The notes below the pieces were generated by a model. That model saw only the letters and a program-made list of their open reading frames with translations. It was not told where the DNA came from and did not search any database. The position numbers and the translations under genes were made by a program. Source: a virus (Duplodnaviria; Caudoviricetes). Taken from it: a stretch of DNA of 36,502 nucleotides. The stretch lies in the IMG/VR virus record IMGVR_UViG_3300020044_006674, positions 1 through 36,502 of that record. One strand, written 5' to 3'. Positions 8,004-35,822 of this stretch are shown piece by piece (position 1 is the stretch's first letter; every line of letters begins with the position of its first letter).

Positions 8004-8060
8004 TCAACCACACCGCATAGCGGCTAGCGGGTGAAATGCCCGCGTAACTTTGGAGTCTGT

Positions 8061-8576
8061 ATGGCAATCACAAAAAAGATGGTTATGGATTGCATGAGGC
8101 GTGAAATTGCCCTATCGCTTCCGGTTAAAAAAAAGACAAATCATCACCACCAACGCCCTCTTTGGGCTTGGATGCAGGGCGCAAAACTAAGCGCAGGCCC
8201 ATCTAGGATTGAAGCTGTAATAGCGAATCAATGTAGGTGGCCGTGGAGAACATTAAATGCATCTGGTCACACGTTTGTGCATCGGGTGTTTAAGAAAAAG
8301 ACGCTGCCTTGGCTGCAAAAAAACTGGCTGCTTGATTTCATATCTAGGCGGTATCAAGGCAGCTACGGATATTCAAGATTTCAGATTTGCCACGATCACA
8401 ATTTCAAAACCAATAAGTTGCTAGATGCAAATGAAGCTTCATTGAAAACTTGGCAATTCTTTGAATCTTGCTTGGATAAATTGGGTGTCAAATATTTTGA
8501 TGTTCCTTTGCGACTAATTTTATCGGCTGAACTTTCAGCACTAATCAATCTTAAATTTATGGAGTATTACAAATGA
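8061..8576 (+). CDS. AT-rich hypothetical protein
   Basis: GGAG RBS; visibly lower GC than its neighbours. Confidence 0.6.
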   Translation: MAITKKMVMDCMRREIALSLPVKKKTNHHHQRPLWAWMQGAKLSAGPSRIEAVIANQCRWPWRTLNASGHTFVHRVFKKKTLPWLQKNWLLDFISRRYQGSYGYSRFQICHDHNFKTNKLLDANEASLKTWQFFESCLDKLGVKYFDVPLRLILSAELSALINLKFMEYYK

Positions 8577-9741: not shown

Positions 9742-12561
9742 ATGAGCAACTACGACGATTTCATCAAGCGCAAAGCGACTGAGGATGTCGAATCAGGTTT
9801 TGAACCTTCGCAGCTTGGCGATCATCTATTTGATTTTCAGGCATCAATTGTGGAGTGGGCGTGCAAGCGTGGCCGGGCTGCAATCTTCGCTGATACCGGC
9901 CTTGGCAAGACTGCCATGCAAACCGAGTGGGCACGCCAAGTGTCTGAGCATACTGGTGGGCGCGTATTGATTGCGGCCCCTCTATGCGTGGCACAGCAGA
10001 CCGTCGAGGAAGCTGCCAAGTTTGGCATCCACATTCAGTATTGCCGCCATCCGTCAGAGATTGGTAGCAGCACAATGATTGTGATTACCAATTACGAGAT
10101 GATTGAGAAGTTCGATCCGGCTGAGTTCGTCGGCATTGTGCTAGACGAGTCATCCATTCTCAAAAGCCACACCAGCAAGACCCGCGCACTCATCATTGAG
10201 ATGTTTCAGCGCACGCCCTACCGCCTAAGTTGTACCGCTACGCCATCTCCTAATGACCACATGGAGCTTGGCAATCAAGCCGAGTTCTTAGGTGTGATGA
10301 CCAGCGTTGAAATGCTCGCCATGTTCTTTGTGCATGACGGTGGCGACACTTCGCAATGGCGACTAAAGGGCCACGGAAAGACTCGGTTTTGGGAGTGGAT
10401 GGCTACTTGGTCAATCTGCATCCGTAACCCTGCTGATTTGGGATTTGATGGCGCACGCTACAACCTGCCTGGACTCAAGATGCATGAGCATGTTGTCGAA
10501 TCTGGCGAGCCTTTGGATGGGCAGCTATTCGCAGGCATTGCGCAGACGTTGACAGAGCGCAGAAAAGCAAAAAAAGACTCAATGGATGAGAGGGTTGAAA
10601 AAGTTGTATTGCTAATTAAGTCTGAAAATGCTAAACTGGCAGCACTTTATAAGGATGCTGAAAATGGCTTGGAAACCAGAATACACAGAGAACCGCAAAG
10701 CGCGAGAGGCTGCGAATCCGGATCTAAAAGAAAAGCACTTGGCGTCTGCAAAGCAGAGCCAGGAAAAGAACAGGGATGCTCGCAAGGAATACATGAAGGC
10801 GTATTACGCTGCGAACCCAGAGAAGTTTACAAAGCGCAAACCGGAGAATCAGGCGAAGCACAACGCGAAACGCAGGCTGGAATATTTGGAAAATCCAGAG
10901 TTGAGGGAGAAGATCAAAGCACAGGCGAGAGAGTGGAGCTTGGCAAACCCAGAGAAGAAGAAGGATCAAAGACTTCGATTGACTCACGGAATAAGCCGGA
11001 TGGATTTTCTAGAGATGCTGGCGATTCAGAACAATTGCTGCGCGATATGCGGTTACACAGCGGAGAAGCACGGGACGATGTGGCCGGTAGTGGATCACTG
11101 CCATGTGACTGGGAAAATACGCGGACTGCTTTGCATGAATTGCAACCAAGCACTCGGGAAATTCAAGGACAACTATGCCAACATTCTGACGGCAGCCATG
11201 TATCTACAAAGAAATTTATAGTCTGGTGTCACCTTAACTCAGAGCAGGATGCCATCTTCTCTGAGTTGAAAAAAGCAGGAATAAGCGCCGTATCAATCCA
11301 AGGGTCTACGCCATCCGATAAGCGAATCGAGTGGGAGCATGACTGGCGCGCGGGGAATACACAAGTCCTGATTTCAAAGCCATCTGTTTTTGGATGGGGG
11401 ATGAATTGGCAGCATTGCAGCGATATGGTTTTTGCGGGCTTGGATGACTCTTACGAGAGCTTTTATCAAGCCATCCGGCGCTGTTACCGATTCGGGCAAT
11501 CCAAGATTGTGAATGTGCATCTTGTGTCTGCTGAATCAGAAGGCGCAGTTAAAGCGAATCTTGAGCGAAAACAAGCGCAGGCCGACGATATGGCGCAAAG
11601 CATGGTTGACCACATGCGCGAATTGACAAAGCAAAAAATCAAAGGATTGACGATGGAAAAGAGCGAGTACAAGCGCGAAGTGGCGCAGGGCGAAGGCTGG
11701 ACGGTGCACCTTGGGGACTGCGTAGAGGTGGCGCGGGAGATGCCTGATAACAGCGTGGATTACAGCGTGTTTTCACCGCCATTTGCCAGCCTCTACACAT
11801 ACAGCAACAGTGACCGCGACATGGGCAACTGCAAATCAACCAGCGAGTTTTACGATCATTTCCGGTTCTTGGTGAAAGAGTTGCTACGAGTGGTCAAGCC
11901 CGGTCGCCTGCTGTCGTTTCATTGCATGGACTTGCAGACCAGCAAGTTCCGGGATGGTGTGATTGGCTTGCATGACTTCACCGGCGAATTGACGCGCATG
12001 TTCACCGAAGAAGGATGGATTTATCACAGCAAAGTGACGATCTGGAAAGATCCGGTAACAGCCATGCAGCGCACGAAGGCACTTGGCCTGCTTCACAAGA
12101 CAATCCGCAAAGACAGCAGCATGAGCCGCCAGGGTATTGCTGACTACCTTGTGACGGTGCGAAAGCCAGGTGATAACGCTGAACCGATCAGCCACACACA
12201 TGAGACGTTCCCGGTTAGCAAATGGCAAAACTATGCTTCTCCCGTTTGGATGGATATCAACCCATCGCGCACATTGCAATTCAAGACTGCCCGCGAATCA
12301 GATGACGAGCGCCACATTTGCCCGCTACAGCTTGACGTCATCGAGCGTGCGATGGAGCTTTGGAGCAACCCCGGCGATCTGGTGTTTTCACCATTTACCG
12401 GCATTGGCTCAGAGGGGCATGTGTCTATTGAGATGGGACGCCGGTTTGTCGGTAGCGAGTTAAAGCGCAGTTATTGGGAGCTGGCAAAGCGCAACTTGAG
12501 CGAAGCCCGCGAGACACAAGCATCAGGATTGTTCGCAGCCGAAGAACTGGAGGCCGCATGA
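9742..12561 (+). CDS. SNF2/SF2 helicase fused to an N4C/N6A DNA methyltransferase, with an ~196 aa in-frame insert
   Basis: DTGLGKT, LDESS, TATP, FIVWC, GWGMNWQ, QAIRRCYRFGQ; C-terminal GDC, SPPF, HICPLQ, SPFTGIGS (beta-class motif order). Confidence 0.88.
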   Translation: MSNYDDFIKRKATEDVESGFEPSQLGDHLFDFQASIVEWACKRGRAAIFADTGLGKTAMQTEWARQVSEHTGGRVLIAAPLCVAQQTVEEAAKFGIHIQYCRHPSEIGSSTMIVITNYEMIEKFDPAEFVGIVLDESSILKSHTSKTRALIIEMFQRTPYRLSCTATPSPNDHMELGNQAEFLGVMTSVEMLAMFFVHDGGDTSQWRLKGHGKTRFWEWMATWSICIRNPADLGFDGARYNLPGLKMHEHVVESGEPLDGQLFAGIAQTLTERRKAKKDSMDERVEKVVLLIKSENAKLAALYKDAENGLETRIHREPQSARGCESGSKRKALGVCKAEPGKEQGCSQGIHEGVLRCEPREVYKAQTGESGEAQRETQAGIFGKSRVEGEDQSTGERVELGKPREEEGSKTSIDSRNKPDGFSRDAGDSEQLLRDMRLHSGEARDDVAGSGSLPCDWENTRTALHELQPSTREIQGQLCQHSDGSHVSTKKFIVWCHLNSEQDAIFSELKKAGISAVSIQGSTPSDKRIEWEHDWRAGNTQVLISKPSVFGWGMNWQHCSDMVFAGLDDSYESFYQAIRRCYRFGQSKIVNVHLVSAESEGAVKANLERKQAQADDMAQSMVDHMRELTKQKIKGLTMEKSEYKREVAQGEGWTVHLGDCVEVAREMPDNSVDYSVFSPPFASLYTYSNSDRDMGNCKSTSEFYDHFRFLVKELLRVVKPGRLLSFHCMDLQTSKFRDGVIGLHDFTGELTRMFTEEGWIYHSKVTIWKDPVTAMQRTKALGLLHKTIRKDSSMSRQGIADYLVTVRKPGDNAEPISHTHETFPVSKWQNYASPVWMDINPSRTLQFKTARESDDERHICPLQLDVIERAMELWSNPGDLVFSPFTGIGSEGHVSIEMGRRFVGSELKRSYWELAKRNLSEARETQASGLFAAEELEAA
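10609..10655 (+). promoter_or_regulatory. Candidate internal sigma70 promoter and RBS for the nested endonuclease
   Basis: TTGCTA(10609)-17bp-TAAACT(10632) with extended-10 TG at 10629-10630; AAGGA at 10651-10655. Confidence 0.55.
10664..11221 (+). CDS. Endonuclease VII-family (His-Me finger) putative homing endonuclease, nested in the +1 frame of the helicase gene
   Basis: HGIS...QNNCCAIC...VVDHCHVTGKIRGLLCMNCNQALGKFKDN...AAMYL; basic N-terminal repeats ending in NPE. Confidence 0.9.
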   Translation: MAWKPEYTENRKAREAANPDLKEKHLASAKQSQEKNRDARKEYMKAYYAANPEKFTKRKPENQAKHNAKRRLEYLENPELREKIKAQAREWSLANPEKKKDQRLRLTHGISRMDFLEMLAIQNNCCAICGYTAEKHGTMWPVVDHCHVTGKIRGLLCMNCNQALGKFKDNYANILTAAMYLQRNL

Positions 12562-13064
12562 TCCACCACGCCACCCAATCCCACACACCAGCCCGCCGCG
12601 CCAATGAGGGCTCATCATGCATAGTTTGGCAAGGTGCTCACAGCCACGGCGCACCCGCCGTATGGGCCAACGGGAAAACACAACTGCTTAGGCGCGTTAT
12701 TTGGCAAAGCGGGAAAGGCGATATACCAGAAGGCATGGTTGTTCGAATGAGGTGCGCCACGCAATCATGCGTAAACCTTGAGTGCATGGAATTGATGACA
12801 CGCGGCGAAATGTCAAGAATTGGCGGCATCAAGGGGGCGATTGATAAGCCAGAGTCACTCGCCAAGCGCGGCCAAGAGCTACCCCACTCAAAGCTACTTG
12901 ACATCGACGTTATCAGCATCAGAAGCGCCGTCAGACAGCGCCAGAACTTGCTGACGTACATCAGAGACAACCTGAGCAATGATGCGCTGTGCAAGCAGTA
13001 TGGCGTGTCTGAGCATGTGATTTCAAGGACAGTGAGTTATCAGAGTTACGGGCATATCGCATGA
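12558..13064 (+). CDS. Degenerate HNH-fold protein with a C-terminal HTH-like region
   Basis: CIVWQGA...IPEGMVVRMRCATQSCVNLECM retains the HNH_3 scaffold but lacks the His residues; GGAGG RBS. Confidence 0.65.
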   Translation: MIHHATQSHTPARRANEGSSCIVWQGAHSHGAPAVWANGKTQLLRRVIWQSGKGDIPEGMVVRMRCATQSCVNLECMELMTRGEMSRIGGIKGAIDKPESLAKRGQELPHSKLLDIDVISIRSAVRQRQNLLTYIRDNLSNDALCKQYGVSEHVISRTVSYQSYGHIA

Positions 13065-35060: not shown

Positions 35061-35822
35061 TTATTGCGCTAATAGTCGCTTTGCATCAGAGTTGGCGCGC
35101 CTTGTCGCCCACTGCTTTTCGATACTTTCTTTGCTCATTACGCGGCCTGTTGATGACCGCCGCAGGTTTTCCTTGTGCTCTGTAGTCATAACTCTTCCAA
35201 GCATTGCAGCCCTGATCTTTTCAACTTCGTGCGGCGGCCTTACCCTTCCGGTGCTGGCAACTCTTAACTTTTCAATCTGATCCGGGGTTTGCCTGCGCCC
35301 GGTGTTGGCTATGCGTATTTTTTCTATGGTCTTTTCACTGGGCTTTTTGCCCTTCATGTGACCAAGCCTCGCGCGTGACTCAGGAGTCCAAACCGCAGTT
35401 TTATGTGAGGCACGCATCTTTTCTATGGTCGATTCGCTATGCTTTTTCCCAAGGTTTGCTTGGCGCAATAGCTCTCTAGTTTCTGGCGTTGGGACAACTC
35501 CAATCACGCCTTCTCCGCCTGCGGATAAGTTGTAACCACCATTGCCCTTGGTCCCGTAAAGCTCGATCACCAGCGGCTCAATAAACAGCAAATAGTCCCA
35601 CGTTGCGGAAAGCAATGTTTCAACGACAACCGATTGATGCCCATATTTAGTTATGGCTCTGCTAACCGCGATACCCCGACCACTGGCTGCGTTTTTGCAG
35701 TGTTCTTTAAATCTCGCTTTTGCTGTCCTACTGGTAATCCCAATGTAAGCCTTACCGTTTGGGAAAGTCAAACGGTACAAAAATCCAGAAGGATTGTTTT
35801 TCGATAGAATTGATTCAGCCAT
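35061..35822 (-). CDS. Free-standing GIY-YIG homing endonuclease with NUMOD3 repeats
   Basis: GFLYRLTFPNGKAYIGIT, RFKEH, GYNL..GGEG, repeated GKKHSESTIEK-type units. Confidence 0.9.
   Translation of the reverse strand: MAESILSKNNPSGFLYRLTFPNGKAYIGITSRTAKARFKEHCKNAASGRGIAVSRAITKYGHQSVVVETLLSATWDYLLFIEPLVIELYGTKGNGGYNLSAGGEGVIGVVPTPETRELLRQANLGKKHSESTIEKMRASHKTAVWTPESRARLGHMKGKKPSEKTIEKIRIANTGRRQTPDQIEKLRVASTGRVRPPHEVEKIRAAMLGRVMTTEHKENLRRSSTGRVMSKESIEKQWATRRANSDAKRLLAQ

Follow-up and report, generated by a model that had tools for sequence, protein, structure and literature searches.

How a phage gene can hold a complete second gene within its coding sequence, in a different frame, and keep its own frame open from end to end is the question raised by the locus described here. 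It lies in a 36,502-nucleotide stretch of viral DNA, positions 1 to 36,502 of IMG/VR record IMGVR_UViG_3300020044_006674 (hereafter, the window). There, a gene for a SNF2-like superfamily 2 helicase fused to an N6/N4 DNA methyltransferase (9742..12561, plus strand; 939 amino acids; Pfam matches to SNF2/DEAD, Helicase_C, and N6_N4_Mtase) contains zero internal stops and carries an endonuclease VII gene in its +1 frame. A preliminary description of this DNA had proposed a splicing-independent homing element that leaves the host frame open, and this proposal draws support from frame-specific avoidance of stops, patchy occurrence, purifying selection on the nuclease, and the lack of any intron or intein signal. 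We consider it very probable that the element is an unspliced homing cassette that is read through in the host frame.

The hidden nuclease and the open host frame

The nearest alleles without the insert (empty alleles) encode 742 amino acids and are 91–92% identical to the window gene overall and 92–95% identical across the first 296 residues, so the net insert amounts to 197 codons. Alignment to these insert-free homologs, which the preliminary description had suggested, also located the junctions and the host tracts that are carried along. The length first proposed, about 196 amino acids, is close to this net insert, but the interval given for it (10609..11225) is smaller than the unit that is exchanged (10563-11409). 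In the host frame, the insert reads as a "shadow" peptide of about 197 residues (10624..11214, plus strand) that lies between the two RecA domains in the alignment, has no NCBIfam match, and is predicted by AlphaFold2 to be disordered, with a predicted local distance difference test score (pLDDT) of about 23–27 over residues 311–480.

The nuclease is intact, as had been claimed. The longer open reading frame (ORF) in the +1 frame (10628-11221; 197 amino acids from an ATG at 10628) matches Pfam Endonuclease_7 (E=3e-18) and seven PHROG endonuclease VII families, and its TAG (11219-11221) overlaps the host codons for KFIV, just past the point at which helicase sequence resumes, where the preliminary description had also placed it. 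Since some 60 close relatives, mostly 180–188 amino acids long, begin with M-x-W-K, we take the Met at 10664 (MAWKPEY) as the family start, which gives a gene of 185 amino acids (10664..11221, plus strand) that is recognised from Pfam, PHROGs, the family alignment, and a structural model. The DHHRN pattern (CX2-4C, D-H-x-H, R, CX2C, N) is present and is invariant in 61 family sequences, the catalytic and zinc residues being C138, C141, D156, H157, H159, R165, C169, C172, and N173 in P0002 numbering. The model is confident (mean pLDDT 91.4) and has a helical N-terminal region of seven helices followed by a C-terminal beta-beta-alpha (zinc/His-Me) domain. A Foldseek search with this model returned nothing at E≤0.001, and its best rows, Hpy99I and T4 Endo VII, were weak (E of about 0.02). 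Compared with the related locus L003, the nuclease shows a dN of 0.10 and a dS of 1.56, and its frame is under purifying selection. On its sequence, the window nuclease falls within the definition of the DHHRN family, and cleavage is predicted.

The strongest evidence for read-through is the absence of stops from the host frame. When the window nuclease was shuffled synonymously 2000 times, the host frame was expected to contain 11.0 stops under host codon usage or 7.4 under the nuclease's own usage, against 0 observed, and no shuffle was stop-free under either usage. The uniform-codon estimate of about 1e-4 in the preliminary description was thus right that opening by chance is unlikely, but it understates how unlikely. 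A search for loci with a single protein had found only 2, both distant; further loci were fetched by nuclease motifs alone in three scans (covering 7, 8, and 37 of 64 parts) and by a junction pattern in one (29 of 64), so that locus counts are samples and not totals. Among the matches listed, 441 records gave 350 with a nuclease match, 48 of them inside a helicase homolog and 42 remaining after 6 duplicates were dropped. The check for stop depletion that had been proposed for other insert-bearing alleles gave a clear result, as the host frame is open in 40 of these 42 loci over the span checked (9 partial at the 5′ side), including 21 of the 23 loci from motif-only scans, whereas the shifted frame is open in only 9 of 184 listed non-nested controls with 450 nt of open nuclease frame and in 0 of 102 controls below 55% GC. 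One of the 9 open controls turned out to be nested in a terminase gene. The exceptions among the 42 nested loci are L093, a split gene, and L090, with one host stop. L090, in which the stop falls at a conserved Trp and the nuclease is shortened, and L083, whose nuclease has a premature stop and whose host frame is still open, are decay states.

Codon choice shows the same avoidance. In the 22 loci that share the window's phase, T-ending codons precede AA, AG, or GA in 0 of 851 cases, against 504 of 1861 elsewhere, while in that context the 19 other-phase loci give 161 of 825 and the 271 non-nested genes 2482 of 7375. Other-phase loci avoid a different set of contexts, those that form stops in their case (1/74 vs 90/329). 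The zero is a consequence of the frames being open, and it is the controls that supply the frame specificity. The open host frame is therefore selected and not due to chance, and the avoidance is frame-specific. What is selected appears to be little beyond openness: 42% of shadow residues differ between the window and L003, and in a comparison of three pairs, which also gave the dN and dS values, nuclease fourfold sites (26 of 52 differing) are about as free to diverge as host ones (64 of 107), so the shadow peptide seems little constrained other than in being stop-free.

Such avoidance fits translation through the insert, since an intron or a ribosomal bypass would need none. Judging from the sequences, the host protein is likely translated straight through the insert as a predicted disordered loop of 197 residues. 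A loop of 130–200 amino acids between the RecA domains of a superfamily 2 helicase could be costly, and this is the argument for the opposite view, in which some unrecognised process (RNA splicing, ribosome bypass, or protein excision) removes the insert, and the frame is open either incidentally or only because excision requires it. We give this view very little credence, as the avoidance is complete and frame-specific. An Rfam scan of 10300-11600 returned only PAGEV (E=0.38), with no ribozyme core or domain V, and the nuclease fills nearly the entire insert, leaving less than 50 nt of it outside the nuclease ORF; a group I or II intron was rejected. We likewise rejected an intein, given that neither a Hint domain nor an N-terminal C/S/A block nor a terminal HN before C/S/T was found with Pfam, NCBIfam, or inspection of the junctions, whose residues are not conserved among carriers, and that the shadow peptide is wholly different between the two frame classes. 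The preliminary description had reported the lack of both signatures, and these checks agree with it. A ribosome hop was rejected as it offers no reason for stop avoidance.

Mobility and the carried tract

Is the cassette mobile, or has it been inherited with its host gene and often lost? Among the best 120 homologs of the host protein, 9 have a long insert at the window's site and 111 do not, and in run X8 an empty allele (contig 28, at depth 121) occurs alongside a carrier at depth 7.5. Frequent host-frame stops in relatives, an ordinary intron, or presence of the segment in all homologs, any of which the preliminary description had taken as speaking against a homing element, were not found. 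What is exchanged is larger than the insert. DNA identity to the empty alleles falls from about 10563 and recovers at about 11398, the exchanged unit (10563..11409, plus strand) measuring 847 nt against 256 nt in the empty allele, a net 591 nt. It includes a short upstream host tract (10563..10623, plus strand) that is common to other carriers and unlike the close empty alleles, and a downstream tract of about 56–60 codons (11215..11397, plus strand), recognised by comparing identities, that runs from IVWCHLN to just before the codons for GMNWQH. Identity to five empty alleles is 30–43% in windows of the tract. Across 56 of its residues, 34 carrier–empty pairs, chosen for 70–97% upstream identity, are 37.1% identical, as opposed to 77.0% for 267 empty–empty pairs, although outside the tract both sets show about 80% identity.

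Trees point in the same direction. In a tree of the host flanks, with insert and tract excluded (96 rows, omitting 8 near-identical empty alleles), the window's sister is an empty allele, and high support also joins three further carriers to an empty allele each. Monophyly of six carriers on these flanks was rejected in an approximately unbiased test (p=1.65e-56; 27 rows, picked after the first tree had been seen). In the tract tree, in contrast, the same six carriers group together with one empty allele, L267, which has a carrier-type tract without the nuclease and in which either the nuclease was lost or the tract was transferred alone. The element also uses two insertion sites and both shifted frames: among the matches listed, site A, before IVWCHLN, holds 22 loci in the window's phase and 11 in the other, and site B, about 12–16 codons before GMNWQH, holds 9. 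On this sequence evidence the element is mobile, with carriers interleaved with empty alleles. In the nuclease tree only 8 of 69 branches are starred, too few to count the origins of the frame classes.

These results bear on the idea that the nuclease is not a homing enzyme but a domesticated phage function, either a resolvase or a competition factor, that is inherited vertically and frequently lost. Endonuclease VII motifs are also found in resolvases and restriction enzymes (PMC6083498), purifying selection is compatible with either role, and in the host tree a divergent clade of 8 carriers includes no empty allele. Nonetheless, carriers are sister to empty alleles, the tract tree conflicts with the flank tree, and the catalytic domain sits at the C-terminus after a long helical region, an arrangement also seen in F-CphI. 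Moreover, empty alleles of the divergent subfamily probably exist, since Pacc40 gp60, discussed below, has no insert at site A. We thus regard domestication as highly improbable and homing as the better account of the distribution.

Members of the family are also found in cultured phages. Gordonia phages Malisha (gp71; L443:1712-2239) and Squiddly (gp64; L444:1706-2233) carry them without annotation inside genes annotated as DNA helicases; their own motif is GMNFQH, and empty Gordonia phage GMA1 has GMNWQH. Other arrangements were also seen. When 12 of 16 loci were viewed, L140 (3-1892, plus strand) was found to have an endonuclease VII (458-973) out of frame in a terminase large subunit gene, between its ATPase and nuclease domains, with the host frame open and no Pfam intein. 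L093 (1382-2000) is a split form at site A: the helicase half terminates, and the second half has a new start, an ATG that overlaps the end of the nuclease. The nuclease there has TGTTATAAT and a Shine-Dalgarno site, and both of its shifted frames are full of stops. The site B carrier L086 (3365-5082) has an extra gap of about 1.7 kb between its helicase and methylase matches.

Predicted expression, target and self-control

A nuclease gene buried in another gene needs a way to be expressed, and the 5′ part of the insert suggests one. A predicted extended −10 promoter, TG-C-TAAACT (10629..10637, plus strand), is written in host codons, with a predicted start near 10644; TAAGGA (10650-10655) and then the ATG at 10664 come after it. 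Of 33 carriers, 10 have a TG-extended −10 box ahead of the nuclease start, whereas such a box turns up in 4 of 454 shifted host windows and in 20 of 234 non-nested genes. Among 18 loci picked by hand, 9 have a −10-like hexamer separated by exactly 6 nt from the ATG or GTG that follows, the spacing of a leaderless message. Malisha and Squiddly, neither of which was used in defining the motif, both have TGC-TAAACT, 6 nt, and ATG, and the split locus L093 has TGTTATAAT at the −10 position. No −35 box was found by the window's promoter, and a standard sigma-70 scan of the window, which requires one, consequently reported no promoter. Folding predicts a small hairpin (10640..10660, plus strand; −6.7 kcal/mol) over the Shine-Dalgarno-like TAAGGA; part of this hairpin's 5′ arm would be missing from an RNA begun at the internal promoter. 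L003 and L004, like the window, have small predicted hairpins at the ribosome-binding region, which differ in sequence. Truncating the RNA to its predicted start releases that region for the window and for L003, but for L004 it does not. Taken whole, the 141-nt region is no better at folding than shuffled sequences (z 0.39).

Where would the nuclease act? Because the carried tract ends at the GMNWQH codons (11398..11415, plus strand) and both insertion sites lie upstream of them, we take these codons to be the likely binding site. A copy of them, found with a position weight matrix (PWM) built from 71 empty alleles only, overlaps the promoter (10628..10645, plus strand; 6.7 bits, p=0.035), and in a shifted frame N-W-Q-H is encoded by the bases that cover and follow the −10 box. 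With the scored interval of L090 placed by hand, the 5′ junction scores p≤0.05 in 17 of 36 carriers and reaches at least 8 bits in 4 of 36, against 0 of 228 controls. This copy might be an operator through which the nuclease limits its own synthesis, a role to which our analysis gives about even chances. At the 5′ junctions of L084, L085, and L090, two tandem NWQ-like motif copies stand before the nuclease start. A splice deleting everything from the 5′ copy to the GMNWQH codons was considered and rejected, as it would shift the frame and lose a conserved helicase motif.

Taken together, these features suggest a possible cycle. The nuclease would be made from its own internal extended −10 promoter, on a message that would be leaderless in many relatives and would have a short leader with a Shine-Dalgarno site in the window. 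In a mixed infection or on encountering a prophage, it would cut an empty allele at the GMNWQH codons or a little upstream of them, some 180 nt away from the insertion point, and repair would copy tract and nuclease gene together, since the tract between cut and insert is too divergent (37% amino acid identity) to pair. The carrier's own tract would be without the cleavage determinant, and the copy over the promoter would act as the operator limiting nuclease synthesis. If so, this would be a self-governing homing cassette written wholly in host codons, with promoter, target-derived operator, translation control, nuclease, and a carried helicase piece that forces co-transfer, an interpretation that we offer tentatively, as one that falls somewhat short of an even chance. 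The same tentative interpretation has this nuclease lineage solving the problem of overprinting for either shifted frame, at both insertion sites, and in a further host gene, that of the terminase large subunit.

Several observations weigh against parts of this account. The mimic is missing in 19 of the 36 carriers, the window's own mimic score is modest, and the −10 match is absent in 16 of 33 carriers. In the window itself the GMNWQH codons are intact (28.9 bits), and the exact GFGMNWQHC of empty alleles is retained by 2 of 9 carrier proteins; both facts leave self-immunity unexplained, and immunity would have to lie in nearby bases of the tract. The carrier-type tract is not exclusive to carriers, as it occurs in the empty allele L267 and in Pacc40, and repeated loss could account for part of the patchy tree. 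Finally, the disorder of the insert is only suggested, because the AlphaFold2 model of the host is poor overall (mean pLDDT 48.4, 17 sequences).

Some of these points favour a more modest version, in which homing and read-through hold, the 5′ motif amounts to no more than a promoter together with a leftover of duplicated host sequence, and the enzyme's real target is the insertion point itself, in the WCHLN codons. In addition to the missing mimics, the mimic and the −10 box have four letters in common, and inserts of the ShiLan type (see below) also start with a resemblance to downstream host sequence, according to section 3.1 of the paper describing them (PMC11855218). On the other hand, the tract is asymmetric, ending at GMNWQH, the two insertion sites border one and the same stretch, L380 has an 18-nt near-consensus match to the GMNWQH codons, and the mimic tracks the W/F variation of the host motif. 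We see this version as a real contender, although one that we would not quite put at even odds, and we retain the GMNWQH codons as the predicted target.

Related systems, genomic setting and meaning

The preliminary description saw in this element the best candidate within the window for an undescribed system, which is not supported: the architecture was published in 2025 as the ShiLan domain (Arsenault, Gosselin, Gogarten 2025, PMC11855218), including a case in the same host family, Pacc40 gp60. Both are in-frame, stop-free insertions, some 200 codons long, into a methylase-type phage gene, and each conceals a beta-beta-alpha-Me nuclease in another frame (an HNH nuclease in ShiLan). Both come without an intron or intein, have a disjunct distribution, and are predicted to form a disordered loop. 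In the window, we likewise found an insertion absent from close homologs, an intact nuclease in the shifted frame, no intron or intein signature, and a disjunct distribution. However, an HNH nuclease flanked by zinc fingers at the methylase site of ShiLan was not found, as Pfam and PHROGs give endonuclease VII only. The window nuclease is of the endonuclease VII/DHHRN type and sits in the helicase part, and its family is found at two sites and in either shifted frame. Pacc40 gp60, homologous to the window's host gene (30–40% identity), has a different insert at a different site, after residue ~233 and not in the linker before IVWCHLN. The accessible sections of the paper report that no ribosome-binding site was found and describe no internal promoter, carried tract, target, or stop-avoidance test. 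The window element is thus of the ShiLan type, showing every feature that can be tested, but is not the ShiLan domain itself.

Other systems share some of its parts. In the portions available, F-CphI, of the DHHRN family (PMC6083498), has the same CX2C, DHxH, R, CX2C-N pattern in its C-terminal domain, but it is not nested in the frame of another gene, and cleavage has been shown for it, while the window nuclease is known from sequence. Endonuclease VII genes have been reported out of frame inside inteins (10.1101/2025.01.02.630785), and frame-dependent selection has been described for an out-of-frame LAGLIDADG gene (10.64898/2026.09.14.751524). From what these sources present, the likeness is a selected nuclease frame overprinted on an open host frame, and the difference is that their shadow peptide is removed by protein splicing, whereas the window insert has no splicing domain. 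The T4 endonucleases, free-standing or in introns (PMC2988022), resemble the cycle proposed here in cutting at a distance from the insertion with co-conversion, in intronless homing, in having a promoter overlapped by a copy of the homing site (as with I-TevI, whose operator overlaps its promoter), and in having a hairpin over the ribosome-binding site; the split nrdA of Aeh1 resembles the split-gene state of L093. Those described there lie in introns, between genes, or between split halves, and none is read through in a host frame. Our literature search found no intein-free endonuclease VII nested in a helicase, but it covered few subscription journals, and the ShiLan paper's own survey may include cases. 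What is new here is the endonuclease VII family without an intein, the carried tract, and the predicted internal extended −10 promoter.

The 36.5-kb window has integrase, repressor, recombination, portal, capsid, and tape-measure genes by Pfam and PHROG matches, and its virus is accordingly a temperate tailed phage. An ORF for an HNH_3-like nuclease (12474-13064, plus strand) comes directly after the helicase-methylase, and an ORF for a GIY-YIG/NUMOD3 nuclease (35061-35822, minus strand) has portal on one side and prohead protease on the other. Between the ssDNA-binding and Gp157 region genes lies a 181-amino-acid ORF (8031-8576, plus strand) with no Pfam or PHROG match.

Three questions were not settled in the 2025 paper (PMC11855218): whether translation runs through such inserts, by what means the hidden nuclease is expressed, and what it cuts. 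The window family supplies statistical support for read-through, a concrete promoter, and a predicted target, and these questions become directly testable given the promoter, the predicted target, and the cultured carriers Malisha and Squiddly, which grow on a laboratory host. If the self-governing cassette proves true, the targets of hidden nucleases would be readable from the operator copy. More generally, annotated phage helicases hide nuclease genes that have not been called, and homing can carry a functional piece of an enzyme between distant lineages.

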